From: Clostridiales bacterium | GTDB lineage: Bacteria; Bacillota; Clostridia; Oscillospirales; Acutalibacteraceae | Assembly (NCBI GenBank): GCA_024693205.1 | Contig: JAILLJ010000080.1 | Span: 1 to 57,196, forward strand | Reading direction: 5' to 3' | Length of the DNA: 57,196 nucleotides | In this document: piece by piece, positions 24,374-49,755 of the stretch | Position numbering within the stretch: the first letter of the stretch is position 1 | Layout of the letters: each line of letters starts with the position of its first letter | The notes under the pieces: model-generated | What the model saw: the letters and a program-made list of their open reading frames with translations, nothing else | Told to the model about the DNA's origin: nothing | The model's database searches: none | Program-made: the position numbers and the translations under genes

Positions 24374-26479
24374 TTAATACCAGATAAAGCCGAGGAATAC
24401 AATTATAATTATCCATTGCCAGACGGTAAGCCTTACGTCCACGGTACAGGAAGCGGTAAGCGGTTTTCCGTCTTTATCCGTCGCCTCACGCCCCGTCAGA
24501 GAATCTATGACGACGGCGGAGATGACGGCGCTGCCCTTTCCCCTTTTAGTCGCCGTCACGATCCCGTTATTGTCGACCGCGGCGACGGAGCTATCCGATG
24601 ATTTCCAGACTATCCTGAAATTTTCCGCGCCGTTTTTCACAAGCGCGGCGTTTATTTTTGCGCTGTCTCTGTATTTCAGAGAAAGGGACGTTTTATCGAG
24701 CGTCAACGACTGCGGAACGATCCTTGTCTTAACCGGCTTTATCGTTACGCCGCCGACCTTAAGCTCGTAATCCTCCCATTTAAAGGTATATCCGTTTTCA
24801 ACAGGCGGCTCCGGCTCCTCGATAGACTCGGTCTCAACGGTATATTTTACCGTCTTTATGACCTTGCCTTTTTCATCGACGAATTTCGCGTCGTATTTTA
24901 TCGGCGTATAGACAGCGTTTACCACGATCCCGCCGGGCTTAAGTGTGTAATTCTCCCATTTTACGGTATATCCCTCTTTTGCGGGCGCGGTCGGCTCATC
25001 TATCGAAACGCTGTCGACGGTGTATGTTCTTTCGGCAACCGTTTTGCCGTATGCGACGAATTTTGCCGTATATTCAATGAGGCTGTAGACGGGTCTTATC
25101 GTTATCCCGCCCGATCTAAGCTCGTAAGCCTCCCATTTTCCGTCCTTGCAGCCTGCGGCTTCGGGGACGGGCGGCTCATCTATCGACTCCGTTTCAAATG
25201 TATATTTCACTACGGCAACATTGTTTCCGTCTTTATCGACGAATTTTGCCTCGTATTCTCCGGGTGTGTAGACGGCGTTAATTTCCGTTCCGCCGGGTCT
25301 GAGTTCATAATCCTCCCACGTTCCGATATACCAATCCTTTTCGGGAACGGCCGGCTCGGTAACGGACTTTGTCATTGCGGTATATTTGACCGTTCCCACG
25401 GTCCTTCCGTCGGCAATGAAGGAAGCCGTATATTCCGTCATATCGAAATTAAAAACAGGCCTTAAACCGATATCGGTGTGGTTGACGATACTTCCGTCGC
25501 TGATATTGCCTTGATACTCGACGTCGCTCGCACCTCGGCTCGTTTTTCCCGGTGAGCGAAGCCACCAGTTGGAACAGTATGTTCCGTCCGACAGCGTAAA
25601 TTCATGATCGACATAAAGGCCCTGACAAAGAGCGTAATCCGTTCCGCTCGCTCTTCTCTTTAACGCGGAATTTAATCCGTAAGAGGTGTTGATAATATCA
25701 TAGTATGACAAAATCGCTATTTTGTCCGTCGTCGAGCTTGTGAAGGACGCGTCGAATGCCGATTTTGTTTCACGCTCGACAGACGCTATCTTTGCCTTTT
25801 CCCCTTCGTCAAACGCCGTATCGTAAAATGTACCGTTCAAAAACGGGAGGACGGTGCTGTCCTTGTAGCTGTTTGCGTAAACGGTACGCTCGCTGTCCTT
25901 ATAATAATTCGTGTCGTTTTCGGAATCGGCGTAAAGCGTATCGCTGAACGACTGTGAATCTATTATTTTTTCACATATGACGAGACCCGTCGCGGGATCG
26001 AGCACGCGCCATTTCAGCGGCTCGTATCTGAACCAATATGTCGTATCGATAAAGTATCCGTTTTCGGCCTGATGAGTTTTTTCCTCGGAGGTATCGCTCT
26101 TATAATTAGTAAAGCTCTTTCTGTATGACGAAAATCTTACGCCGCGGTAATATTCACCATTAAGCTCCGCGTCGCAGTATTTCATATAATCGGCTTTTTC
26201 CGCCGAGCCGTCGAAGTAATAAAGTCCGCCGCCGCTCATATATCCGTAGCTTTTCCACTCCGCGGAAAGGGCGTTGAGCGCCGAGACCGTCGCGCTGTCC
26301 GTCACCTTCGTTTGGGGATATCTTCCGAATTCTATTATATCTCCCGTGCGGTAGCCGGTTACGCCTTTCCCGTCCGCGACCGCCGAAAAAGCGAAAAGTC
26401 CCGCCGGCGCCGCGCCGAACGCCATTATGAGCGCCAACATCAGCGCAAATATTTTTATCAGCATTTTTTTAGACTTCAT
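24374..26479 (-). CDS. Large exported surface protein: N-terminal domain, 4 Listeria-Bacteroides (InlB B / Flg_new-like) repeats, a Big_2-like Ig domain and a C-terminal hydrophobic anchor
   Basis: Start placed at ATG 26479 (MKSKKMLIKIFALMLALIMAFGAAPAGLFAFSAVA, GGAGG RBS). The N-terminal domain has GDIIEFGRYPQ and WWLRSPG motifs. It has four ~60-aa repeats and a Big_2-like segment (SSDSSVAAVDNNGIVTATKRGKGSAVISA). It ends WQWIIIIVFLGFIWY. Confidence 0.8.
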   Translation of the reverse strand: MKSKKMLIKIFALMLALIMAFGAAPAGLFAFSAVADGKGVTGYRTGDIIEFGRYPQTKVTDSATVSALNALSAEWKSYGYMSGGGLYYFDGSAEKADYMKYCDAELNGEYYRGVRFSSYRKSFTNYKSDTSEEKTHQAENGYFIDTTYWFRYEPLKWRVLDPATGLVICEKIIDSQSFSDTLYADSENDTNYYKDSERTVYANSYKDSTVLPFLNGTFYDTAFDEGEKAKIASVERETKSAFDASFTSSTTDKIAILSYYDIINTSYGLNSALKRRASGTDYALCQGLYVDHEFTLSDGTYCSNWWLRSPGKTSRGASDVEYQGNISDGSIVNHTDIGLRPVFNFDMTEYTASFIADGRTVGTVKYTAMTKSVTEPAVPEKDWYIGTWEDYELRPGGTEINAVYTPGEYEAKFVDKDGNNVAVVKYTFETESIDEPPVPEAAGCKDGKWEAYELRSGGITIRPVYSLIEYTAKFVAYGKTVAERTYTVDSVSIDEPTAPAKEGYTVKWENYTLKPGGIVVNAVYTPIKYDAKFVDEKGKVIKTVKYTVETESIEEPEPPVENGYTFKWEDYELKVGGVTIKPVKTRIVPQSLTLDKTSLSLKYRDSAKINAALVKNGAENFRIVWKSSDSSVAAVDNNGIVTATKRGKGSAVISAVVIDSLTGREATDKDGKPLTASCTVDVRLTVWQWIIIIVFLGFIWY
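24722..25432 (-). repeat. Four tandem ~180-bp coding repeats (B-repeat modules) inside the surface-protein gene
   Basis: Repeat units: YTASFIADGRTVGTVKYT...GTWEDYELRPGGTEINAVY; YEAKFVDKDGNNVAVVKYT...GKWEAYELRSGGITIRPVY; YTAKFVAYGKTVAERTYT...VKWENYTLKPGGIVVNAVY; YDAKFVDEKGKVIKTVKYT...FKWEDYELKVGGVTIKPV. Confidence 0.85.
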
Positions 26480-26490
26480 TTTTATCCTCC

Positions 26491-26521
26491 GAAAGAAAAG
26501 CGCGCAGCCGAAGCCACGCGC
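26491..26521 (-). terminator. Terminator-like hairpin between the predicted promoter and the RBS of the surface-protein gene (possible attenuator, or terminator of the upstream two-component operon)
   Basis: Minus strand: GCGCGTGGC-TTCG-GCTGCGCGC followed by TTTTCTTTCGGAGG, so the U-run runs into the RBS. Confidence 0.5.
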
Positions 26522-26570
26522 ATTAAAATACCGTACGATCCTGCCTGCTTTCTCTATATGTGGCAAGGTC

Positions 26571-26599
26571 ATTTTATCATAGTGTGAAAGGGATTGCAA
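26571..26599 (-). promoter_or_regulatory. Putative sigma-A promoter of the surface-protein gene
   Basis: Minus strand: TTGCAA - 17 nt - TAAAAT. Confidence 0.5.
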
Positions 26600-30402: not shown

Positions 30403-32190
30403 TTAATTGTCAACATAGCCGCCGGAGTATTTCACGGGCGCTCCGTTTCTTATCGTAAAGTCAAGCGTTCTGTCCTTTATCGGGTCTACGGAGCCTATCC
30501 TGAAATATTTTACGGTCACGGTGATATGCTTTGCGCCGACCTTCGGCACCTTTCCGGTAAACGTAACCTCCTTTGTCTTTCCGGCGGGGATGATAAGTCC
30601 GTCCGCTTCGTCAAAGGCGATATCCGCTCCGTCACATGTGACAGACATTATTTTTATCGGATACTTCTTAGAAAGGTTTTCTATCTCGAGCTTTTTATCC
30701 TTGCCCGTAAGATATCCGCTCAGGCTGTCGTCGAACTTTGCGTACACGCCGCGGTTCTGATGCTTCGCAACTTCAAACTGAGGATAATTCGCGTCGCTGT
30801 AGATGTCGATCCTTTTGTCGGTATAGACGAGCTTTTTGACGAGATCGAGCGAATACTTTTCGAGGCTGTATGAGCCGTGGTACTGGCCGTCTATGAACCA
30901 TGTGTTTTCGGGAAGATACGCGCAAGACGCGTCTATCTCCATAGAGGGCGAAACGTGGTAATGCGATTTGTTTTTACAGACCGTATTTGCACAGACATAC
31001 CCGTCGGCAAAGCGCTTTCCGTAGGGAGCGCACTTTGCGCCGCTGACCTTTTCGGTATCGAGCAGGATATCTCCGAGCGCGTCGTCACCAAGGAAGGTAT
31101 CGTTTCCGTAGTTGCAGAGGATCGAGACGTTTACGCCCTTGTCAAGGCACTTTTTGAAATTCTTTCTGTAATTCGGAACAATCTTATGGTGGATAAAATC
31201 GCTCTCCTCAATAAGCTTCGCGCTGGCGCCCTTGTCGAGCAAAACGGGCTTTAACTTTTCGTAATCCTCGTTCGTCATAAGATCCCACATGCTGTTCCAA
31301 TAGAGCGTTATCGGTCTGAATTCCTTTAAAAACGCCGAGAGGAATTTGTTAAGCTCGTCTGTACTAAGCAGCTTTATATAGTCCGAAATATGAGACTCAA
31401 GGCCGAAGCCGGTTTCAACGAACTGAATGATATCGCTGAGAGGAATATCGGACTCGCCGAGATAATAGTCGCTTATAAAGCTCGTTCCTCCGAGCGCGGG
31501 CACGTCCATAATAACATTTTTAAGATCGCCCTTTGTTCCGTAGAGGCTGAGATATGTTCCCGTTATAAGTCCGCCGAAGCTCATCCCGAAAAGGTTTATC
31601 CTTTTGGCGCCCGTATATTCCTTTACCTCTTCGATAAAGGTGCGAAGCTCCCTGGCGCATTTGTACGCGCCCATCCTGAAATCGTAGTGGTAAACAAAAA
31701 CGTTGTCCTCGCCTGTCTTGTTCGCTGCGTCAACGGCCAGAAGCGGCTCACAGATATCGGCGAGATCCATTTTGTTTTTTAAATATTTGTATGTCGATTT
31801 TTCGGGGATGTTGGGGTAGCATGTGACGTTGTATTTCGAGGTGCCGTCGGGATTGCAGACAAGCTTTTCCACTACCTCCTCGCTGCCGTCGGCAAAAAGG
31901 GTGCCGAACCGCTCGGGGGTGTATTTCCCTTCTATTATCATCTGAATGAGCGACGGGAGTTTAAGCTTAACCTGTTCGGCTGCGTCCGTCGCCGAAAACG
32001 GCCATACGGTCTTCTGATCCGCCTCGCCGTAATTATAATAAAGGAGATTAAGCCCAAAGCCCGTCACAACTACCAGCGGTACGCGCTCGTTTTTCTTAGT
32101 CCTTGCGTATGACGGCAGCAAAAGCGCCGTAGCAAGCAGCAGCACAGCCAAAACGAAGCTTAATACCTTTGTCAGTGTTTTATTTGACAT
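30403..32190 (-). CDS. Exported LCAT-like alpha/beta-hydrolase (lipase/phospholipase) with a C-terminal beta-sandwich-like extension; paralog of 7120-8688
   Basis: Signal peptide MSNKTLTKVLSFVLAVLLLATALLLPSYA (ATG 32190 after GGGAGGGG). YDFRMGA then GMSFGG nucleophile elbow. IDAS...NTWF..G..H...YPQF block shared with the 7120 gene. Confidence 0.6.
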   Translation of the reverse strand: MSNKTLTKVLSFVLAVLLLATALLLPSYARTKKNERVPLVVVTGFGLNLLYYNYGEADQKTVWPFSATDAAEQVKLKLPSLIQMIIEGKYTPERFGTLFADGSEEVVEKLVCNPDGTSKYNVTCYPNIPEKSTYKYLKNKMDLADICEPLLAVDAANKTGEDNVFVYHYDFRMGAYKCARELRTFIEEVKEYTGAKRINLFGMSFGGLITGTYLSLYGTKGDLKNVIMDVPALGGTSFISDYYLGESDIPLSDIIQFVETGFGLESHISDYIKLLSTDELNKFLSAFLKEFRPITLYWNSMWDLMTNEDYEKLKPVLLDKGASAKLIEESDFIHHKIVPNYRKNFKKCLDKGVNVSILCNYGNDTFLGDDALGDILLDTEKVSGAKCAPYGKRFADGYVCANTVCKNKSHYHVSPSMEIDASCAYLPENTWFIDGQYHGSYSLEKYSLDLVKKLVYTDKRIDIYSDANYPQFEVAKHQNRGVYAKFDDSLSGYLTGKDKKLEIENLSKKYPIKIMSVTCDGADIAFDEADGLIIPAGKTKEVTFTGKVPKVGAKHITVTVKYFRIGSVDPIKDRTLDFTIRNGAPVKYSGGYVDN

Positions 32191-32217
32191 TTTTACCCCT
32201 CCCATGAGAAAAAATCG

Positions 32218-34494
32218 TCAGTCTATTTTGATAAAGCTGTTCGGTTCTACCGTGATACCGCTTACCATCTTTTCTTCACCGTTATAGTTTACGTATATCA
32301 CAGAGCCGTTTTCGTATTCCGTACAGAAAACTCCGCTCGTCTGAGTTTCGTAGTTGCCGGTGATCCTCATATCTCTCAGCTCGCACAGCGTCTCGTTCGC
32401 CTTTGTGTAGAAGTCCGCCGCGTCGTTGAGCTGGTTTTCGTAATAATACTTTCCGCCCTCTCCTATCTTTTCATAATACCATTCATACGACGGGCACGCG
32501 CCGTACTCGACGCTTCTCAGCATCGCGCGCTTGACGTCGTCGGCGGTATTGACGGGAGTTCCGGAATAATCGGCCGTACCGTGAAGTATCATCTGGACGA
32601 ACGGCACCGCCTCGTAACAGCCGCTTCTTTCGCCCGCCGCAGGCGACAGGGGAAGGTCGATAATAACGTCCGCGTTCTTTATGGCATAGAAATTACCGTT
32701 TCTTATCATAAGTCCGCGTCCGGTCGAAAGCGGGGAAATATTTTCGGCTATTATCTTTGAAGCGTCCTGCCTGTTTGTAAATCCCTTTGAAGAGTCGGAA
32801 TAAAGCAGGTCGGAGTCGTTTACGCAATAGCCGTCTATCTTATATTTTTCGGAGTCCGTCAGATATGATATTACATTTCTTTCGAGACGGGAAAGCTTCA
32901 AAAGATCCCTTTCATAGGATGCGGGACCCATCATCCCGTATATCGCGTTCGGTCTTTTGATAACGCGGCTTTCACCCGCAAGATCTTTCGCGCAGCCGAA
33001 CGGCAGAAGCCTGTCGCTGTTCCACGACATGATACTGATATCGAGGAAAAATCCCGTGCCCTGCATCCTCAAATAGTCGAGAAGATCCTTAAAGCCGCTT
33101 TTTCCGCCGAGCTTTCTCTGGATATCAACGCCGTTCTTCTTGTTTTGGTTTATCCCTCCGTCAAGGACGCCCTCGTAGCGCACGTTGATATTGTTTATGC
33201 CCTTTGCCTTCATTCGCGAGAGCATGTCCCGCGCTTCCTCAAAGGTGGTGAGAGCGTTTACCGCTTCGAGCCTGTCGGTGAGCTTTGATTTTCCCGTAGC
33301 GGAGCCGATTATGCTGAGATTGAACGGAAGGTACTCCGTCTCTTTTACCATGTCGGTCGAAATGAGCTTGCTTCTCATAAACTGCTCTCTGCACGCCGCC
33401 GCCATGCCGTCATAGTCTGCGCTGGCGCCTCCGAGGAGCCTTATACAAAGACGAATCTCATCGTCGAAGCTTTCGCCGCTTAAATATGTCACGTTGTCCC
33501 TGACCGTCTTTTCGGTCACGTTGAACTTAGCTCCGACGGTGTTGAAGCCGCTGCCGCCGCGCGCACGGTCGGCGTTAATCGTCGCGATCGCGTCGCCCGA
33601 TTCTATTATTACGGCGAAGGCGTCTTCGCCCTGCTTCGCGCCGTATGCCGGAAAAACGGCTCTCATAACGTCGCTGTCGTCGGGATCGCCGTAGACCTTA
33701 AAGCTGAGCGGCTTAAAGCTGTTATCTATCACGGCGGTCTTTATCGCCGCTCCGCAGCCGTCGGGAACGAGGATGAAATCTCCCTCCTCCGCTCTGTCGC
33801 TCGCTCCGAAAAATTCGAGCAGGCCGAGGTTTTCTATCTTTATTTCATCGTTGTCCGAAAGGTTTTTCCAATTTGCGCCGACATAAAGGTTTCCGTCCCT
33901 GAGCGCGTAGCTCACGGTCACGAGAAAAGCGATATCGGAGGACGAGAACGATCCGAGTTTGTCGCTTCCGTTCGCAAGACCCTGTTTGTTTACCTTTGAA
34001 GCGACGGTCGCGTCGGCGGTGATTATATAATTGACATTAAAGCCGTTTATGGCGTTGTTTTCCGTCGTAACGTCTACGGCGACGTTTTTGTATTTTACGC
34101 TGTCGTCCTGGGAGTTCAGGTGGTATATGTCCTTGCCCTTTATGACGTCGAGAGTCACCGTCGCGGCGGAGTTGTCATAATTCGCGTTGGACGCCGCCGG
34201 AAGCGCGTACCAGCGCTTTCTGTTGGACGTTTCGAGAAGCGCTACGCCGAAGCTGTTGTCGTCGATGTAAAGGCGCATGAGCCCCGAGCCGGCCATCGGC
34301 TCCTGGAGCCTGCTCTCGTCAATAAGATGGATGCTCTTATCCGTTACGGTCGAAAAATGCTCCGTCATTTTGCCCGTTACCGTCAGCGCATCCGGTTTTT
34401 TTCCGAAGCTGACGCAGCCCGTACATGAAAGCACGAGCGCGGCAAAGATAATCACGGCAAGAACAGCCGATACTGTCCTCTTTTTTTTCAACAA
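32218..34494 (-). CDS. Large lipoprotein of unknown function (possibly a carbohydrate-active, DUF5696-like protein; unverified)
   Basis: Lipobox LVLSCTGC after a basic N-terminus. 758 aa with no catalytic motif I can name. Segments such as ILVPDGCGAAI and NNINVRYEGVLDGGINQ recall uncharacterised glycosidase-like lipoproteins, from memory only. Its stop is 27 nt before the lipase start. Confidence 0.6.
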   Translation of the reverse strand: MLKKKRTVSAVLAVIIFAALVLSCTGCVSFGKKPDALTVTGKMTEHFSTVTDKSIHLIDESRLQEPMAGSGLMRLYIDDNSFGVALLETSNRKRWYALPAASNANYDNSAATVTLDVIKGKDIYHLNSQDDSVKYKNVAVDVTTENNAINGFNVNYIITADATVASKVNKQGLANGSDKLGSFSSSDIAFLVTVSYALRDGNLYVGANWKNLSDNDEIKIENLGLLEFFGASDRAEEGDFILVPDGCGAAIKTAVIDNSFKPLSFKVYGDPDDSDVMRAVFPAYGAKQGEDAFAVIIESGDAIATINADRARGGSGFNTVGAKFNVTEKTVRDNVTYLSGESFDDEIRLCIRLLGGASADYDGMAAACREQFMRSKLISTDMVKETEYLPFNLSIIGSATGKSKLTDRLEAVNALTTFEEARDMLSRMKAKGINNINVRYEGVLDGGINQNKKNGVDIQRKLGGKSGFKDLLDYLRMQGTGFFLDISIMSWNSDRLLPFGCAKDLAGESRVIKRPNAIYGMMGPASYERDLLKLSRLERNVISYLTDSEKYKIDGYCVNDSDLLYSDSSKGFTNRQDASKIIAENISPLSTGRGLMIRNGNFYAIKNADVIIDLPLSPAAGERSGCYEAVPFVQMILHGTADYSGTPVNTADDVKRAMLRSVEYGACPSYEWYYEKIGEGGKYYYENQLNDAADFYTKANETLCELRDMRITGNYETQTSGVFCTEYENGSVIYVNYNGEEKMVSGITVEPNSFIKID

Positions 34495-34547: not shown

Positions 34548-36203
34548 TCAGCCCATTTTTTCGGGATATGTCGCGTTATCGGGACTTGCGGCGGCGATAT
34601 AATAGCCCTCTATAAGGTATTCGTCAAGATTTTCGTCGCCCTCCGGCCAATCCCATATCGCCTCGACTCCGTCCGCAAACAGCGGATAGATCTGTCCGTT
34701 TAAGTAAAGAAGGTCCATACAATAATAATCTGTTTCGCCGCGAAGACGCTTTGACATCGAACAGCTCAATATGCCGTTTTCGCGGTAAAAGATGCTTTCA
34801 AGCTTCCTTCCGTCTTTTTCGGCAAGCTTAATAAGCTTTTTTCCGCCGGGGATCGTTTCGATATCGCTCCTTCCGACCTCGATCCCGCCGTACTCCTTTA
34901 TCCCGTCAGGAGTATCGCGGAAGAAATACGGCTTATGAGTGTGTCCCACTCCAAGGCTTTCTCCCGTTTCGCTGTCCTTTAAGTCGTCGGCAAACGCAAA
35001 ATCGAACGCGCCGAGCGTGCTTATAAGCGTATCGGGAGGAAGAAACGGACTGCTTGAAGCGTTCAATATCTCAAGTCCTGTCTCAGAAATATCGAACAGT
35101 CCGACCTTTTGGCAGTCGTTGCCGACGACCTCCCAAATACCTGTCGGCAGTGCCGAGCCTGACACGAGCGGCGTCTGAAAATAGTCGTGATATGTGGAGG
35201 AAATGACGTCAAGGTCATCCGAACAAACAACATCCTTTTGAATTTTCTTTGGTTTTCCGTTTGACGGCGCGAACCACGCGGATCCGATCGCCGTCCCGTC
35301 GTAATCTTCACTTTCCTTGACGAAAGCGAACGCCTCATATGTCCCGTTTCGGTCATAGTCCGAAACGAATACAACCTGCGGCTCCTTTCCCGCTTCATCT
35401 GTCACCGACTTTTTAAAGCTCTCTTTCGCGTCTTCATATGTCTTTCTCGCTTTTTCGAGATCGATGCCGAGCTTTTCGTTTAAATAGCTGTCGGGACTTT
35501 CCTTTATATCTGTATTCATACAGTCGACGAAAGCTCTTTCGCCGGTTATCGACTTTATTTTATTTTCAAAAATACCGTCATATTTTTTATCGGTTTCAGC
35601 CAAAACGGCTTCATCCGAATGATCTGTTTTGTCCGGCCATTCGTCGCCGAACGCGCTGCCCATCAGCAAAAATCCGTTTTCATCCACACAGTAAACGTAG
35701 CCGGAATGGAACGCCGCCGTCCCGTTATCATGGCCGTCGTCCGTGTAGTAAATGCAGTTGTCGTCCGAAATACGAAAATGAACGCCCTCGGACGAATGAG
35801 GATGCGGATAAATAACGGATAGACCGGCTTTATCGGTATATGTCACAAAAAACTGCTCCGGGCTTTCTCTAAGCTCGCCTTCGTCGAGGTAAGCTGTTTT
35901 TGCGATTATTTCCGGATATCCGTCAGCGTTGATATCGGACGCGTATACGGAGCCGCCCGTCGTCGCAAAGCCGTCGAACCGTCCCAAAAACGCGGAGTAA
36001 GCTGCCGCCGCCTTTTCGGGCATGGCGGGCTGTACCTCGACCTTTTTTTCGGTCGTCGTCCTTTCGTCTTCGACTTTAGCCTCGGTCACGGTTTCGGGTT
36101 CGGTCGAAGAAGCGGCTTCCGACTCTTTGCCGCATGAGGCAAACGATAACACGGTCAAGACGGAAAGCGCGAGGGTGAATATTTTTAAAAGTGTTTTTTT
36201 CAT
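34548..36203 (-). CDS. Lipoprotein of unknown function
   Basis: Lipobox LSFASCGK, acidic low-complexity linker, one FG-GAP-like calcium loop (DINADGYPE). 551 aa; first gene of the three-gene exported operon. Confidence 0.6.
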   Translation of the reverse strand: MKKTLLKIFTLALSVLTVLSFASCGKESEAASSTEPETVTEAKVEDERTTTEKKVEVQPAMPEKAAAAYSAFLGRFDGFATTGGSVYASDINADGYPEIIAKTAYLDEGELRESPEQFFVTYTDKAGLSVIYPHPHSSEGVHFRISDDNCIYYTDDGHDNGTAAFHSGYVYCVDENGFLLMGSAFGDEWPDKTDHSDEAVLAETDKKYDGIFENKIKSITGERAFVDCMNTDIKESPDSYLNEKLGIDLEKARKTYEDAKESFKKSVTDEAGKEPQVVFVSDYDRNGTYEAFAFVKESEDYDGTAIGSAWFAPSNGKPKKIQKDVVCSDDLDVISSTYHDYFQTPLVSGSALPTGIWEVVGNDCQKVGLFDISETGLEILNASSSPFLPPDTLISTLGAFDFAFADDLKDSETGESLGVGHTHKPYFFRDTPDGIKEYGGIEVGRSDIETIPGGKKLIKLAEKDGRKLESIFYRENGILSCSMSKRLRGETDYYCMDLLYLNGQIYPLFADGVEAIWDWPEGDENLDEYLIEGYYIAAASPDNATYPEKMG

Positions 36204-45011: not shown

Positions 45012-45124
45012 CGCCTTTTAATATAATCAACAAATTATAACATACATATTATTTTTTTATATTCTTTTTAGGAAACATAAGACAAAATAATTATAAAATA
45101 CACACAAGCAGATCCAAGTGTCGG

Positions 45125-45159
45125 ATAAAAAAGACCGTGACGCAAAACACGTCACGGCC
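45125..45159 (-). terminator. Rho-independent terminator of the four-paralog operon
   Basis: Minus strand: GGCCGTGACG-TGTTTTG-CGTCACGGTC followed by TTTTTTATCC. Confidence 0.8.
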
Positions 45160-45189
45160 ATGAACAGATCAAATATTAAAATATCGGGA

Positions 45190-46008
45190 TCAGAACAGTC
45201 TGAGGATCGGCGTAAGCCATGTGTCGAGCCATCTGAAGAAGAGCTCCATACGAAGCTTTCTGACCCTCAGGTTTGCGCCGTAGATGCCCATTTCGTCGTT
45301 TTCGACAGGATCGGTCTTCAGTATCTTGTCGTGGATCTTCTGATACGCGGCAAGACGGAGGTTAGCGATCTTTTTGATGAGCTTCATGAGGGGCGTGATC
45401 ATTTTCTGGAAGAATCCGACATTTTTATCGGCGATATAGTCGAGATCGTCAACGTCGTCGACTACGCCGGGGTCGGACTTGGTCTTGTTCCAAAGGCCGT
45501 AGAACGTGATGATCGTCTTACCGCCTTCACCTATCGAATACGAATCCACGACCCAGCCGACGAAGGTGTTTTCCTCGGGGAAGGGTATCGTGAAGTCTAT
45601 CGTAGCTTCGAGAGGAGTGCCGACGTTTACCGTGCTGGTGACGTCAACGACCGTATAATACTGGGTGGGTTCCTTCGTGTTATCGGAGAACGAGGTGTTG
45701 CCCTTGGGGCTGAAAGCGAGCGTATTAACGTCGGTCGCCGTCCAGGTATCGCTCGACTTGACGTCGGCGTCCGGATAATAGATGGCGGTGACGCTAAGAA
45801 GCTGAGAGATATAGATAACGTCTCCGGGTTTTATAACCGTGGCCGCTTCGTTTCCGGCGCTTATCTTATTAAGCGTTGTGAAATCGTCGTCTTCCCATAT
45901 ACGGTAGTTGTAAGGCTGTTCCGTATCCTCGGCGGCAAATCCGGCAACGGTCACAATACCCAAAATCACCGTAAGCGCAAGGAACACAGCTGTCAGTTTC
46001 TTTAACAT
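45190..46008 (-). CDS. Exported protein, paralog 4 of a tandem family (signal peptide, beta-rich core with one B-repeat-like module, long amphipathic C-terminal tail)
   Basis: Signal peptide MLKKLTAVFLALTVILGIVTVAGFA. KPGDVIYI, VTAIYYPDAD and TFVGWVVDSYSIGEGGKTIITFYGLW. The tail runs FFQKMITPLMKLIKKIANL...LFFRWLDTWLTPILRLF. Confidence 0.75.
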   Translation of the reverse strand: MLKKLTAVFLALTVILGIVTVAGFAAEDTEQPYNYRIWEDDDFTTLNKISAGNEAATVIKPGDVIYISQLLSVTAIYYPDADVKSSDTWTATDVNTLAFSPKGNTSFSDNTKEPTQYYTVVDVTSTVNVGTPLEATIDFTIPFPEENTFVGWVVDSYSIGEGGKTIITFYGLWNKTKSDPGVVDDVDDLDYIADKNVGFFQKMITPLMKLIKKIANLRLAAYQKIHDKILKTDPVENDEMGIYGANLRVRKLRMELFFRWLDTWLTPILRLF

Positions 46009-46038
46009 ATCAATTATTCATTCCTTTCACTTTAAAGA

Positions 46039-46740
46039 TTATTTTTTGTCGAATATCTTGAGTACCTTTGCCCACACGCTGAAGATCTTGGGTAAGAAGA
46101 ACAGCAGTGAATTGCCGATAAAATCATAGTACTTCGTGCGGAAGCTTACATATGCCGCGTGGAGCTTTTCTCTCGCCGCTTCTTTTTTGGTCATTTCACG
46201 CGTTGTCCAGATGGCCTCTAAGGTGACGTCGAGAGTCTTTTCGTCGTCGGTGTTGACGGCCGCTACTTTCCAGCCCGTTATCGTCGTATACTGGTAATAA
46301 GTCGTCCTGTTGTAATCGTAGTCGATATTGATCTCGCTGACGTCGGCGCTTTCGCCCTCGCTCGTCTTAAGATCAGACGCAGACTGGAAGCCCTCGTTCG
46401 TCAGCATCAGCATGACCTTGCTGCCCTGTCCGAGAACAGTATAAACGCCCTTTTTATCGCCTGTTGAAAATCCCGAGAGCTGATCTCTGAACTGTGTCAT
46501 CGGATAATCGGGGGCGTAGGTGTTGCCGAATTCGCTCGTTACGTTGGGGATATCGTCCTCGGCTATCGTATATGTAACGACGCACATAGCGGCGTTCTTC
46601 GTCGTCGCTATCGTTCCGCCGACAGGGATCTCCTGTCCGACTTCGACCTGCTGCGGGACCTCTTCCTCAGCCGCCGCCGAAACGGCGAAGCAGCCGAGTA
46701 CAACAAGTGCCGCGAGGAAAACAGATATAATTTTTTTCAT
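46039..46740 (-). CDS. Exported protein, paralog 3 of the tandem family
   Basis: Signal peptide MKKIISVFLAALVVLGCFAVSAAA. CVVTYTIAEDD and TITGWKVAAVNTDDEKTLDVTLEAIW. Tail YYDFIGNSLLFFLPKIFSVWAKVLKIFDKK. Confidence 0.75.
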   Translation of the reverse strand: MKKIISVFLAALVVLGCFAVSAAAEEEVPQQVEVGQEIPVGGTIATTKNAAMCVVTYTIAEDDIPNVTSEFGNTYAPDYPMTQFRDQLSGFSTGDKKGVYTVLGQGSKVMLMLTNEGFQSASDLKTSEGESADVSEINIDYDYNRTTYYQYTTITGWKVAAVNTDDEKTLDVTLEAIWTTREMTKKEAAREKLHAAYVSFRTKYYDFIGNSLLFFLPKIFSVWAKVLKIFDKK

Positions 46741-46812
46741 CAGAAATTATCCTCCTATTTATGCCGGCAGGCGTTTGCCGTGCCGTCTGTTATACTTATT
46801 TCAGCCGCGTCA

Positions 46813-47382
46813 TCAGAACCACATGCCGATCCTGAGGAAGAACTCGCCGATATACTTTAAGAGAAGGTCGACGAAGTGCTTTAAGTATGTGGACTTGAAG
46901 CCTTCCCAGCCCTTTGCCTCCGGGACATCCCAAACGGCGACGACGACTAACTTGTTGTAATTGCTTTCGGAATAGACGTATTTGACCTTCCAGCCCTTGA
47001 ACTCATATTCCTTTTCGCTGACAAAGTCGATCTCTCTGTCGGTCTTGTCGATCGTGTCGGCATATGTGACTGTATCGCCCATGCCCTTTATCGCGTAACC
47101 GCTCGTCTGTTCGAGATCGCAGAAGGTCGTGAAGCCGTTTTCGCTGTAGGCCTTTGCGCCGTCATCGGCGTCGTAGGTGTAGGTGATGATAAGCTGACTG
47201 CTCGCTGTGTCGTCAAGCTCGATAGTATCGCCGGGAACAAAGATAACATCCTTTTTACCCTTGTTAAAAACGGAGACCACTTCGCTCATCTTATAGTTCG
47301 TCGCCTCGGCGGAAACCGCAATGGCGGCAAAGCTGCATATCACAAGAGCAGCTAAAAATACAGATAAAGCCTTTTTGAACAT
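46813..47382 (-). CDS. Exported protein, paralog 2 of the tandem family
   Basis: Signal peptide MFKKALSVFLAALVICSFAAIAVSA. VPGDTIEL, LIITYTYDADD and EFKGWKVKYVYSESNYNKLVVVAVW. Tail GFKSTYLKHFVDLLLKYIGEFFLRIGMWF. Confidence 0.75.
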   Translation of the reverse strand: MFKKALSVFLAALVICSFAAIAVSAEATNYKMSEVVSVFNKGKKDVIFVPGDTIELDDTASSQLIITYTYDADDGAKAYSENGFTTFCDLEQTSGYAIKGMGDTVTYADTIDKTDREIDFVSEKEYEFKGWKVKYVYSESNYNKLVVVAVWDVPEAKGWEGFKSTYLKHFVDLLLKYIGEFFLRIGMWF

Positions 47383-47394
47383 GTTGTTTCCTCC

Positions 47395-48237
47395 TTAGTC
47401 AACGTTTATTTTAAAGAACTTATAAAGAACGCCCGAAAGATAACCGTCCGAAAGGAGCTTGCCGACCGCGTTTGCCGCCGTTGTAACAAGTATCGGAACG
47501 AAGGTTATGTAGTATTTCCAGTTGCTCGTATCATAGGGATTTTTTGAAGAATCAAACATGCTGAAGATCCATTCCATAAATACGATGATATCGGATTTTC
47601 TCTCCGGTCTGCCCGCCTCGGGAACTGTCTCGACCTCTTCCTCGGTAGAGGAAGCGTCTCTCGTCCAATAGGCGTAAAGCTCAAGCGTCGTGCCCGAGCC
47701 GCTGTTTGAAAGGGCTCCGACTGCCCAGCCGAGGAACTCGACGTCGTTTCCGGCGCTGTCCTTGAGGGCGAAATCTATCGGCTTTATTCCCCAGTCATAA
47801 CCCGTTATATCATATGCGGAGATGCCTTCCGATTCATAATCGGCGGAATTGAGCGAGGCAACGGTCGCTTCAAGCTCGACGGATTCCTCCGATTCAAACG
47901 AATAAACGAAGGATTTATACTTGCTCGCGCTCTCTGCAAGCGTTACGTCCTTTCCGAGAGACTCGATATAAGCTTTCCATTTGAGGTTGGTGACCTCGCC
48001 CGCGCCGGTGATGTTGATAGCGTCGGGTTTGTACGTTACGGTAAGCCTTTTGGACTTGTTTTTAAATTTAACTGTATCTCCCGGCTGAAGGATCGTAACG
48101 TCGCCTTCCTCGGTGTCCTTGATCCTGACAATGTCCTGTGACTTATACGTCGTCGACGCGTCGTCGGCATACGATCCGACGGCAAGAGCGCCGAGAGTAA
48201 GCATGACAATGAGCAGAACCGCAATAAGCTTTTTCAT
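47395..48237 (-). CDS. Exported protein, paralog 1 of the tandem family
   Basis: Signal peptide MKKLIAVLLIVMLTLGALAVGSYA (AAGGAGA RBS). QPGDTVKF, LTVTYKPDA and EFLGWAVGALSNSGSGTTLELYAYW. Tail IVFMEWIFSMF...YYITFVPILVTTAANAVGKLL...LYKFFKINVD. Confidence 0.75.
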   Translation of the reverse strand: MKKLIAVLLIVMLTLGALAVGSYADDASTTYKSQDIVRIKDTEEGDVTILQPGDTVKFKNKSKRLTVTYKPDAINITGAGEVTNLKWKAYIESLGKDVTLAESASKYKSFVYSFESEESVELEATVASLNSADYESEGISAYDITGYDWGIKPIDFALKDSAGNDVEFLGWAVGALSNSGSGTTLELYAYWTRDASSTEEEVETVPEAGRPERKSDIIVFMEWIFSMFDSSKNPYDTSNWKYYITFVPILVTTAANAVGKLLSDGYLSGVLYKFFKINVD

Positions 48238-48315
48238 TGTGATTTCTCCTTGACTGTAAATTTACACGGAAGAACCTACAAAAATAATTCAAGCAAAGTT
48301 CCCCAGATACGAATT

Positions 48316-48344
48316 ATTTTAACTCATATCGGCAAATAATGCAA
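48316..48344 (-). promoter_or_regulatory. Putative sigma-A promoter of the four-paralog operon
   Basis: Minus strand: TTGCAT - 17 nt - TAAAAT, about 75 nt upstream of ATG 48237. Confidence 0.55.
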
Positions 48345-48424
48345 TAGAATTTTAATTTTTTTGTTAAGATCGTTTAATATTTCGGCATTTTATACATCCG
48401 TATTTCTTTAAGTTTGTGTAAAAT

Positions 48425-48970
48425 CTACACATTTTGACTTGCTGTTTCGGCAATATCCGATATAGAATACATGACGGAGATAAGATTTCCGAGCGGAGAA
48501 GGCAAAAGCCGCAATATTTCGGGGAGAAACCGAGGCTTTTCTATGTCTATTATTTTGTTTCCCGTATCAAGAGTCAGGCTCTTTTCGTTCTGTATCCCGG
48601 CGACGACGGCCGTCTCCTCGCCCGTCGTCATATGCTCCGTATTTTCTCCCGCGGCGATTATCCCGCACACAGCCGCCGACACGCAAAGGCATATCAGCAT
48701 GACCGCAAGATAAGCACGTCCGATTTTAAAAGCCAATGTTCTTTCCATATATAATGACCGTCCCTTCATGTTTTTATATGTTCTTTGAGCAGCTCCGAAA
48801 GCGCTCTTCCGAGAAGTTTTCCCGATAGCTTTTTCGCCCCGCCCGTCGAGCACCTCTATCCGCGTTATCCTTATCCCGTTTTTTTCTTCCGCCTCGAGTT
48901 TTATCCCCTCGGGCGTCCCGTTTTCAAAGGCTTCGCTGCTTTCAATGGTAAGATCGGTCCTGAAATTCAT
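48425..48970 (-). CDS. Chimeric ORF: the first ~50 codons look like the N-terminus of spore germination protease GPR, fused in frame to an unrelated single-TM sequence (probable gpr remnant)
   Basis: MNFRTDLTIESSEAF...GIKLEAEEKNGIRITRIEVLDGRGEKAIGK matches the GPR N-terminal pattern (xRTDLAVE...GV.V.E....V.I..V.V...GA.A.GK) and is divergent from rpsT as in Bacillus. After IGK the expected G.Y.T.E block and the whole protease core are missing. Internal ATGs at 48769 and 48748 precede a TM segment (AYLAVMLICLCVSAAVCGIIAA). Confidence 0.5.
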   Translation of the reverse strand: MNFRTDLTIESSEAFENGTPEGIKLEAEEKNGIRITRIEVLDGRGEKAIGKTSRKSAFGAAQRTYKNMKGRSLYMERTLAFKIGRAYLAVMLICLCVSAAVCGIIAAGENTEHMTTGEETAVVAGIQNEKSLTLDTGNKIIDIEKPRFLPEILRLLPSPLGNLISVMYSISDIAETASQNV

Positions 48971-49020
48971 AACATTTCTCCTTTGATACCTTTTTAGAGT
49001 AAAAAACTTGTAAAAAGCAC

Positions 49021-49049
49021 TTGCAATTCATTTTTACATATGGTAAACT
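49021..49049 (+). promoter_or_regulatory. Putative sigma-A promoter of rpsT
   Basis: TTGCAA - 17 nt - TAAACT with TGg extended -10. Confidence 0.5.
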
Positions 49050-49062
49050 ATCTATCTGTATA

Positions 49063-49194
49063 GTAGGCGACTGCGAAAGTCCGGAGCGGTACCCCACGCC
49101 GCTCGTTGACCCGCACGTTACTATCGTAATAATTAAGGTATACGGCGTTTGGCGATAACAGCACCATCTCACCCGGGCTTTCGCGATCGCCTAC
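49063..49194 (+). promoter_or_regulatory. Highly structured 5' leader of rpsT (candidate ribosomal-protein S20 autoregulatory leader)
   Basis: A 20-bp closing helix forms between GTAGGCGACTGCGAAAGTCC (49063-49082) and GGGCTTTCGCGATCGCCTAC (49175-49194), with 1 mismatch and 2 G-U pairs. It encloses 92 nt containing at least one internal hairpin (GAGCGG/CCGCTC, 49084-49104). The SD AGGAGG lies 10-15 nt downstream. Confidence 0.45.
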
Positions 49195-49221
49195 CCCAAA
49201 CCTGAAAAGGAGGTGGCATCA

Positions 49222-49476
49222 ATGCCCAATATCAAGTCTGCAAAAAAGCGCGTTCTTGTCAACAAGTCCAAGGCAGCTCGCAACAGGTCCAGAAATTCCG
49301 CCCTTAAAACCGCTATCAAAAAGGCTCATATGGCTGCGGAAACAAATGCGGCGGATAAAGAGGAGCTTATCAAATCAGCGATCAAAAAGGTCGATCAGGC
49401 TCAGGCTAAGGGTCTTATCCATAAGAACAACGCGGCTCATAAGAAGTCCGCTCTTGCCAAGCTCATGAACGACTGA
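49222..49476 (+). CDS. rpsT: 30S ribosomal protein S20
   Basis: MPNIKSAKKRVLVNKSKAARNRS is the canonical S20 N-terminus. ATG 49222 follows AGGAGG; the ORF-track GTG at 49213 overlaps the RBS. Confidence 0.93.
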   Translation: MPNIKSAKKRVLVNKSKAARNRSRNSALKTAIKKAHMAAETNAADKEELIKSAIKKVDQAQAKGLIHKNNAAHKKSALAKLMND

Positions 49477-49508
49477 TGACGCAGTAAATAACAATGGAGG
49501 TTGTCAAT

Positions 49509-49733
49509 ATGTGTAAAGGATTCAAAAAATTTCTCAAGGTCATCGCCACAATAATCGCTATCTGCGGCGCGGCTGCGGCTGTTTATTACGCCGTCAAGAA
49601 GTATCTCGCCCGCAAGGAATGCGAATCGTGCGAGGATTTCGTCCCCTGCGAGTGCTGTGACTGCGAAGAGTGCAACGAAGAAGCAGCCCCCGAAGCAACT
49701 GCTCCCGCGGCAGAGGAAGAAAAAGCGGAATAA
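49509..49733 (+). CDS. Small membrane protein with a Cys-rich acidic tail
   Basis: 74 aa. GGAGG lies 8 nt before ATG 49509. One TM (VIATIIAICGAAAAVYYAV) then CESCEDFVPCECCDCEEC (8 Cys in 18 aa) and an acidic Ala/Pro/Glu tail. It is followed by a terminator. Confidence 0.55.
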   Translation: MCKGFKKFLKVIATIIAICGAAAAVYYAVKKYLARKECESCEDFVPCECCDCEECNEEAAPEATAPAAEEEKAE

Positions 49734-49755
49734 TCCATTTCATTATCCCTCATGA

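Follow-up and report, generated by a model that had tools for sequence, protein, structure and literature searches.

A conserved operon of four paralogous exported proteins of a previously undescribed family in uncultured Clostridia

The csc gene clusters of Lactobacillales, Listeria and Bacillus cereus consist of four separate gene families, cscA-D, with WxL domains (Siezen et al. 2006, PMC1534035), and are stated to be absent from clostridia (PMC1534035). The locus described here resembles them in organisation and is a cassette of four consecutive minus-strand genes, named A to D, on contig JAILLJ010000080.1 of a Clostridiales bacterium (assembly GCA_024693205.1); the whole stretch of DNA that was analysed, 57,196 nucleotides (nt), is hereafter called the window. 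Like a csc cluster, the cassette is an operon of only Sec-exported proteins, generally with one copy each of four families, and both are proposed to form non-covalent surface complexes in which some members are anchored and others attach via C-terminal modules. The analogy is organisational only, without sequence relationship: the only match to the WxL domain (PF13731) among the 45 members of the cassette family has E = 0.075 and is in a protein other than the four of the window. Furthermore, the cassette families are mutual paralogs without an LPxTG member, whereas csc clusters include a small LPxTG-anchored CscD, and the attachment module of the cassette, unlike that of csc, would be an amphipathic helical tail.

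The carboxypeptidases PBP5 and PBP6 of E. coli and those of the DacA type in Bacillus are exported proteins held at the membrane by a C-terminal amphipathic helix. The cassette proteins share with them a signal peptide that is cleaved off and an extracytoplasmic domain of globular form, and their C-terminal amphipathic helix would likewise stand in place of a classical transmembrane anchor, but there is no homology and no enzymatic domain, and the tails are longer (30-95 residues) and carry conserved motifs specific to each subfamily. The presence of such tails in a four-paralog set points to helix-helix assembly rather than to simple membrane adsorption. With the Flg_new, InlB B-repeat and MucBP domains, also found in exported Gram-positive surface proteins, the cassette proteins have in common a terminal beta-hairpin of the type aromatic-GW ... 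L-x-A-x-W; the cassette core is two to three times larger than a Flg_new repeat and occurs once per protein. Finally, the cassette is linked to the gpr-spoIIP-(yqxA) sporulation locus, since in several loci it stands, with a small partner gene, immediately downstream of it; it differs in having its own sigma-A-type promoter and in persisting in the window after the deletion of gpr and spoIIP.

The region 45123-48344 is a self-contained and conserved transcription unit. It consists of a promoter, four genes that all have their own ribosome-binding site, and a terminator (lengths in amino acids, aa):

48316-48344, minus strand: sigma-A-like promoter, with -35 box TTGCAT (48344-48339), 17-nt spacer and -10 box TAAAAT (48321-48316)
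48238-48310, minus strand: 5' leader of ~73 nt, ending in the Shine-Dalgarno sequence AAGGAGA (48251-48245)
47395-48237, minus strand: gene A, 280 aa; signal peptide at residues 1-24, beta-rich core at ~30-191, acidic linker, helical tail
46813-47382, minus strand: gene B, 189 aa; signal peptide at residues 1-25, minimal core, short tail from GW(A/E)GF
46039-46740, minus strand: gene C, 233 aa; signal peptide at residues 1-24, core with a degenerate VGGTI turn, tail
45190-46008, minus strand: gene D, 272 aa; signal peptide at residues 1-25, core at ~30-175, two long tail helices
45123-45159, minus strand: intrinsic terminator, with a 12-bp stem (45159-45133) of which 7 pairs are G-C, followed by TTTTTT

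All four open reading frames (ORFs) are intact and are separated by 12, 72 and 30 nt (A-B, B-C and C-D, respectively); the ORF list and a reading of the sequence confirmed the strand, lengths, gaps, promoter and terminator given in the first-pass annotation of this DNA. A Shine-Dalgarno sequence precedes each of the four genes, namely AAGGAGA before A, then AAGGAGGA, TAGGAGGA and AAAGGAA. The G+C content of the cassette is 49-51%, against 50.7% in the whole window. The promoter lies ~80 nt upstream of the start codon of A; it was passed over by a generic promoter scan owing to the thresholds of the latter, and was found by reading the sequence. A TTGnnn-17-TAnAAT box, often preceded by CTAT, is also present 48-88 nt upstream of A in the nine other loci in which this region is complete (L081, L083, L086, L087, L088, L089, L092, L094 and L096), and no box other than this sigma-A-like one was discerned by eye in the ten loci, the window included; the contig of locus L082 holds only the -10 box. 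The leaders measure 48-88 nt and contain predicted stem-loops (RNAfold) in 11 of 11 loci, mostly near the 5' end, the fold in the window being weak (-9.7 kcal/mol) and located away from the 5' end. They could stabilise the mRNA or be regulatory; Rfam gave no match at E <= 1 for the leader or the operon. A T-rich tract was observed ahead of the ribosome-binding site in several leaders. A terminator-like hairpin follows D, or a fifth gene E described below, in seven of nine other loci as well as in the window, and no such hairpin was found between gene A and the small gene upstream of it in eight loci.

The four translations contain all the motifs quoted in the first-pass annotation: (i) a turn of the PGD type (PGDTV, PGDTI, VGGTI and PGDVI), (ii) a '...TY..DA' strand, and (iii) a terminal block F/I-x-GW-x-V ... 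h-x-h-x-A-x-W. The turn had been placed about 25 aa after the signal-peptide cleavage site, a loose figure for what is actually a range of 16-36 aa. Residues G53, Y69, G170, W171 and W191 (A numbering) are invariant across the alignment of A to D and correspond to the glycine of the turn, the tyrosine of the '...TY..DA' strand and, in the terminal block, the GW pair and the last tryptophan. Pairwise BLAST matches among the four proteins are weak and in part driven by the signal peptides. When subfamily profiles were built independently from the orthologues, with the first 26 residues cut, hhalign aligned all six pairs over the core domain with 93.3-99.4% probability (E 3e-7 to 1e-21). The cores are ~20-27% identical between paralogs. 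On this profile evidence, A to D are true paralogs, four members of one previously undescribed family, of which no further member was found in the window.

An exhaustive HMMER search with a profile of the four mature proteins (1.84 billion cluster representatives, E <= 1e-3) recovered 29 other family proteins of 155-429 aa, whose clusters at 90% identity hold 1-3 members, none of them named. Judged from these searches, the family is very rare and known from uncultured gut and digester Clostridia; the carrier habitats would be ruminant gut, sewage and anaerobic digesters, to judge solely by the names of samples and records. When 5.8 billion proteins were searched by word index, with D, the four paralogs or 37 members as queries, only the window proteins and one match were returned; words from the signal peptides dominated the candidate lists. 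A metagenome scan with a B profile found L087 and L088, and one with a 5-sequence C profile found nothing; the family was not found in the viral contigs and plasmids searched. The cassettes recovered are the following, with gene products in the order A, B, C and D:

L081: 288, 201, 237 and 277 aa
L082: 316, 204, 249 and 308 aa
L083 and L084: 278, 203, 248-252 and 260 aa
L087: four genes
L088: four genes
L089: 271, 226, 235 and 228 aa
L092: 300, 233, 248 and 241 aa
L094: 284, 205, 234 and 278 aa
L096: 299, 234, 260 and 234 aa

Orthology was assessed by BLAST of the proteins, without signal peptides, against the four window proteins in cassettes L081, L082, L083, L087, L088 and L089. Positions 1 to 4 correspond one-to-one to A, B, C and D in all six of these complete cassettes, with orthologue scores of 48-173 bits and cross-paralog scores of at most 49 bits; the A orthologues at position 1 match with E 3e-18 to 2e-57. 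Cassettes L092, L094 and L096 agree in gene sizes and order. One gene of each type in a fixed order is thereby found in distantly related Oscillospirales-like contigs. Because of the one-to-one mapping, A to D are four ancient orthologous groups, present in at least six other cassettes, and not products of a recent local duplication; of the duplication and diversification proposed earlier, the paralogy thus holds and the local event does not. The nonsynonymous rate (dN) was far below the synonymous rate (dS) in 18 of 24 orthologue pairs (apparent ratio 0.09-0.35), of which only the direction of selection is meaningful, dS being saturated (>1.3) in these 18 computable pairs and inestimable in the other six. 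This direction is that of an operon under purifying selection.

Several loci depart from the four-gene layout. A fifth gene, E, is located between D and the terminator in four of them:

L083, 3845-4102: gene E
L089, 9169-9384: gene E
L092, 13162-13371: gene E
L096, 8733-8939: gene E

Gene E encodes 68-85 aa, that is only a signal peptide and a ~45-residue amphipathic helix. It was found only with a short D (228-260 aa) that lacks the last helix, and is absent from the window clade, whose long D (272-308 aa) ends in RWLDxWxxP. An origin of E by fission of the second helix of the long D received no signal from hhalign, the sequences being too short for a verdict. In the A-type orthologue of L086 (P0018, 697-1986), a MucBP domain (E 1e-8) is inserted between the core and the helical tail. 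A marginal member, P0032, has only the terminal hairpin in common with the family. In the B-type protein P0023, a thiolase-like N-terminus (MRDVVVVSAVRTALG...) replaces the signal peptide, and this protein is most likely a chimera of assembly or gene calling.

Each protein is built of four parts: a Sec signal peptide, a beta-rich core, an acidic or Thr/Pro-rich linker and a helical tail. The Sec signal peptides, already recognised in the first-pass annotation, end in A-x-A in all four proteins and are followed by acidic residues. The mature proteins are acidic (isoelectric point 4.5-4.7), Cys-poor and aromatic-rich. A motif scan and Pfam found no LPXTG, lipobox or choline-binding repeat in the window proteins, as had been reported. 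Among the 45 family members, LPxTG occurs in none, and a strict lipobox ([LVI][ASTVI][GAS]C at the end of the signal peptide) in one, which is not a window protein; C-type proteins often have 'FGC' or 'LGC' in the hydrophobic region, yet this region runs on to an A-x-A site. In Pfam, LPAM_1 gave a match below its cut-off (E = 0.032), and the wall-anchor domains SLH, CWB2 and choline-binding gave none at E <= 10.

The core spans ~125-165 residues and is present in single copy in each protein. AlphaFold2 models of A and D, made from a 30-sequence alignment, contain a confidently predicted core. Indeed, model D (mean predicted local distance difference test score, pLDDT, of 84.2) has a core at ~30-175, mostly above 90, with 8-9 strands and the GW...W motif on the long terminal hairpin, and tail helices at 188-230 and 242-271 (pLDDT 51-80), while model A (mean pLDDT 82.9) has a core at 30-191, mostly above 90, and tail helices at 216-227, 241-263 and 266-274. 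Foldseek found no close neighbour of the full-length models in PDB (best E = 0.45, template modelling (TM) score <= 0.25) and no match in BFVD. The core fold would therefore, provisionally and as compared in full-length models, be new relative to these two databases.

The tails are amphipathic (hydrophobic moment 0.4-0.7), as expected from the earlier description of helical amphipathic tails, which the models of A and D bear out. The most hydrophobic 19-mer of the tail of window A is ITFVPILVTTAANAVGKLL, with a Kyte-Doolittle value of 1.56 (borderline transmembrane); over 19 residues, A-type tails reach ~1.3-2.1 and B-D tails ~1.1-1.6. The residues after the A-type hydrophobic segment, read by eye, are not net positive and do not form a stop-transfer flank. 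The tail-anchored surface array that had been suggested is accordingly doubtful as to the anchoring, only the A-type tails being borderline hydrophobic and the B-D tails amphipathic. In B and C, the tail is as conserved as the core. Residues 148-172 are the most conserved stretch of B, where G158, W159, G161, F162 and Y166 are invariant in the B-type alignment; the C tail carries the motif REPT..EAF..LY...LD..G..L...P...WA..LK, with R181, E191, P217 and A224 invariant in the C-type alignment; and residues 258-272 of D, which end in the RWLDxWxxP motif, are among the most conserved of that protein.

No match to Pfam, NCBIfam, PHROGs, PADLOC or PDB sequences was left once the signal peptide was removed, and the family remains, as first stated, unassigned to any characterised system. 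Matches to DUF7096 in Pfam and to a Fab chain in PDB were rejected as signal-peptide artefacts. The same applies to a match to the BLB8/JUQZ-1 bacteriocin model (NCBIfam NF053514; 22.7 bits over residues 1-86, against a cut-off of 40 bits), for which no match at E <= 1 was obtained without signal peptides; JUQZ-1 is a bacteriocin of Brevibacillus (PMC11747845). The first-pass annotation had also taken the terminal block as a link to the Flg_new repeat (PF09479; gathering score 27 bits), and this link failed in Pfam and hhalign and received no significant match from Foldseek with the full-length models. None of the four window proteins matches Flg_new even at E <= 10, only one of the 45 family members does (E = 0.18), hhalign gave less than 1% probability between the family and the four Flg_new-like repeats of a 741-aa protein of the window, and InlB appears only at Foldseek rank 49 (E = 5, TM 0.13; full-length models against PDB). 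The terminal hairpin 'EFLGW...LELYAYW' resembles what we take to be the C-terminal consensus of Flg_new (GY-F-GW ... LYA-W), and P0032 has a weak Flg_new match (E 0.009) that overlaps the family hairpin. The link is a resemblance of hairpin motif only.

Upstream of the cassette, a remnant of gpr is fused in frame to a small membrane-protein gene, whose homologues in six other loci lie directly upstream of A:

Window, 48425-48970, minus strand: gpr stub and small membrane-protein gene, fused in frame, upstream of gene A
L087, 8571-8885: small-gene homologue
L088, 8487-8807: small-gene homologue
L089, 5708-5998: small-gene homologue
L092, 9527-9829: small-gene homologue
L094, 528-824: small-gene homologue
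L096, 5097-5432: small-gene homologue

In the fused ORF, the gpr stub comprises residues 4-52 (48815-48961), matching positions 1-52 of the GPR profile TIGR01441 (E 4e-6), and the small membrane protein, encoded by a separate gene in relatives, starts at Met68 (48425-48769, minus strand). The rest of gpr is gone and spoIIP is absent from the locus. To judge from these remains, a deletion of ~1.9 kb removed most of gpr and all of spoIIP and left the small gene and the cassette intact, and the locus suggests that the window lineage has lost or is losing sporulation genes. The small protein, of 96-111 aa, contains a single hydrophobic helix at the N-terminus and the conserved motif LLPAPxGN, and has no match in Pfam or NCBIfam; it may belong to the cassette as a fifth partner, or else represent a YqxA-like protein of the spoIIP operon.

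The cassette directly follows the small gene in eight loci, including L081, whose contig begins inside this gene (C-terminal fragment), and the small gene is preceded by gpr(-spoIIP) wherever the upstream sequence suffices. An intact gpr (Peptidase_A25), spoIIP, the small gene and then A-B-C-D are found in L087, L088, L089 and L096; in L092 the order is gpr, small gene, cassette, without spoIIP, and the contig of L094 begins inside spoIIP. Further genes near the cassettes encode SpoIVA, SpoVAC, the spoIIIA operon, DpaA and SpoIVB. In L083, lepA is located downstream of the cassette, which fits the order gpr-spoIIP-yqxA-lepA that we assume for Bacillus subtilis, where rpsT presumably lies on the other side of gpr. 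In L083 and L086, the cassette stands in contexts other than gpr-spoIIP. The position first noted, between the V-ATPase operon and a decayed gpr, is correct, but the comparison of loci identifies rpsT / gpr-spoIIP / small membrane protein as the right synteny anchor, which had been overlooked. The V-ATPase was tried as an anchor and rejected: 80 loci from 80 species contained no family member and no conserved upstream synteny, an absence that is not informative on whether those genomes carry the cassette.

Locus L089 also has the amidohydrolase-ProRS pair of the window, and a Cys-rich small gene beside rpsT. With the amidohydrolase-ProRS pair as reference, the block that comprises rpsT, the gpr remnant and the cassette (window ~45100-49750) is inverted relative to L089 (2900-12600); no inverted repeats were found at the boundaries of this apparent inversion. 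In the window, the product of this gene (49494-49733, plus strand), which adjoins rpsT, is a small membrane protein whose acidic tail is rich in Cys (CEDFVPCECCDCE...); its counterparts next to rpsT are found in L089 (2905-3132) and L092 (7674-7874).

We tentatively favour, at a little less than an even chance, the reading that A to D are exported and form an obligate hetero-oligomer, which their sequence-specific amphipathic C-terminal helices would hold together or tether. After export by Sec, about one copy of each protein would enter the assembly, either on the outside of the cytoplasmic membrane or in the wall. Assembly and tethering would be the task of the tails, which are aromatic and amphipathic and might form a helical bundle; candidates for contact with the membrane are the A tail, which is moderately hydrophobic, and the small membrane protein encoded next to the cassette. 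The acidic beta domains would face outward and act as binding modules. An obligate hetero-oligomer is the best reading because one gene of each type is kept in a fixed order, because the tails are sequence-specific and because of the helix-only accessory gene E. The presence of E inside the unit fits a helix-assembly module, and the MucBP domain gained by the A-type orthologue P0018 would suit binding modules that face outward. Expression of the unit in vegetative cells is probable. Both the promoters of sigma-A type and the fact that the cassette outlived gpr and spoIIP speak for a vegetative role, or at least for one without a strict tie to sporulation.

Several points weigh against this hetero-oligomer. 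We infer the contact among A to D from sequence; the tail helices have a pLDDT of just 51-80; and the A-type tails are only borderline hydrophobic, without a positive stop-transfer flank, which leaves membrane anchoring uncertain. A strict need for four subunits is not universal, given the three-gene variant of L086 and the single gene P0026 (L090), which stands beside restriction-modification genes. The carriers are all metagenome-assembled genomes or metagenome contigs. Furthermore, sporulation genes persistently adjoin the cassette, which could mean a sporulation role, and the interval upstream of A has no terminator, so that read-through from a sporulation promoter is possible.

The last two points lead to the explanation in which A to D and the small membrane protein are a sporulation-envelope system, exported between the forespore and mother-cell membranes or onto the spore and acting with the engulfment or germination functions encoded next door. 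We consider it unlikely. In its favour, the cassette comes directly after gpr-spoIIP-small gene in L087, L088, L089 and L096, after gpr-small gene in L092 and after spoIIP-small gene in L094; the genes for SpoIVA, SpoVAC, SpoIVB and DpaA and the spoIIIA operon are neighbours; lepA in L083 matches the order that we assume for B. subtilis; and read-through is possible in the eight loci without a terminator upstream of A. It is opposed by the sigma-A-type promoter of the ten loci with a complete upstream region, none of which by eye has a box like those of sigma-E, F, G or K, by the other contexts of L083 and L086, and by the window itself, where gpr is a 52-residue stub and spoIIP is gone while the cassette genes and signals are intact; because the cassette is intact after this loss, it would not be strictly a sporulation function. 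The shared synteny could also be simply inherited, the carriers being apparently related Clostridia. A wider combination of the two ideas is distinctly doubtful, namely that the small membrane protein and A to D (with E where present) would be a hitherto unknown extracytoplasmic machine of endospore-forming Oscillospirales, with four ancient paralogs of a new beta fold on a heteromeric helical stalk, coupled to engulfment or germination via gpr/spoIIP, and would be a new component of the sporulation envelope that some lineages have kept for a vegetative surface role.

The proteins could instead act separately, as four independent surface adhesins or binding proteins of different ligand specificities, with tails that are just generic anchors to the membrane or wall. 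The divergence of the cores (~20-27% identity), the MucBP insert in one orthologue and the single-gene and three-gene variants are what one would expect of such proteins; however, independent adhesins normally vary in copy number, and a set with exactly one member per type, in constant order over such deep divergence, would be unusual for them. Since the tails also carry subfamily-specific conserved motifs instead of generic hydrophobicity, and a helix-only gene E is hard to explain in this way, we regard independent adhesins as distinctly unlikely. Secreted membrane-active factors, bacteriocin-like or cytolytic, whose cationic amphipathic tail helices would insert into target membranes, are very unlikely. 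The Lys-rich amphipathic helices of the window C and D tails (hydrophobic moment 0.60-0.68), the Sec-exported hydrophobic/amphipathic helix of ~45 residues encoded by E and the weak match to BLB8/JUQZ-1 would suit them, but that match fell short of its cut-off (22.7 against 40 bits) and vanished with the signal peptide, PADLOC and PHROGs gave no matches, no gene for immunity or for a dedicated transporter is conserved next to the cassette, the mature proteins taken whole are acidic and the charge of the tails is not conserved among orthologues. It is highly improbable that the proteins are degenerate members of the superfamily of Flg_new and MucBP surface repeats, as the hairpin consensus and the match of P0032 (E 0.009) could suggest: the domain is a single copy of ~125-165 residues against a tandem repeat of ~65 residues, and the Pfam (none of the window proteins, one of the 45 members at E = 0.18), hhalign (less than 1%) and InlB (rank 49, E = 5, TM 0.13, with full-length models) results given above all speak against it. 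Non-functional or decaying lineage-specific ORFs, finally, are scarcely credible; the decay of the adjoining gpr and spoIIP and the extreme rarity of the family, in clusters of 1-3 members, are outweighed by four intact ORFs with ribosome-binding sites, promoter and terminator, by conserved orthologues with dN far below dS where computable, and by confident AlphaFold2 cores.

If the hetero-oligomeric complex is real, the cassette would be a complete and compact envelope module of four or five genes without a relative in Pfam, NCBIfam or PDB sequences, in uncultured Clostridia of gut, rumen and digesters, bacteria whose cell surfaces have hardly been explored. Its one-to-one, fixed-order paralogs would be a clear signature of an obligate hetero-oligomer, and the small size of the set makes it tractable for structure prediction and heterologous expression. 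A cassette that stands next to gpr-spoIIP and yet survived their deletion would offer a natural experiment on the vegetative reuse of sporulation-linked envelope modules. The family merits a profile model of its own, which would end both its missing family assignment and the mis-hits caused by signal peptides.

The rest of the window is, from its gene content, core chromosome, with genes for a 2-oxoacid dehydrogenase complex, EF-Tu, EF-G, a V-ATPase, ProRS and LeuA; two ORFs (1212 and 1262 aa) that lie between the EF-G gene and that of the 741-aa protein were outside the gene scan. The 741-aa protein (24374-26599, minus strand) is an exported protein with DUF6273, Big_2 and a hydrophobic C-terminal end, unrelated to the cassette family by hhalign. 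It contains four Flg_new-like repeats of ~60 residues each (Pfam, 27.6 bits, just at the threshold), and its listed TTG start is probably too far upstream, a signal-peptide-like sequence, MKSKKML..., beginning at codon 41. A large DUF5696 protein (32218-34494, minus strand; E 5e-125) is encoded between a two-component system and the V-ATPase operon, flanked there by two ORFs (30403-32205 and 34548-36203; 551-600 aa, no Pfam match).

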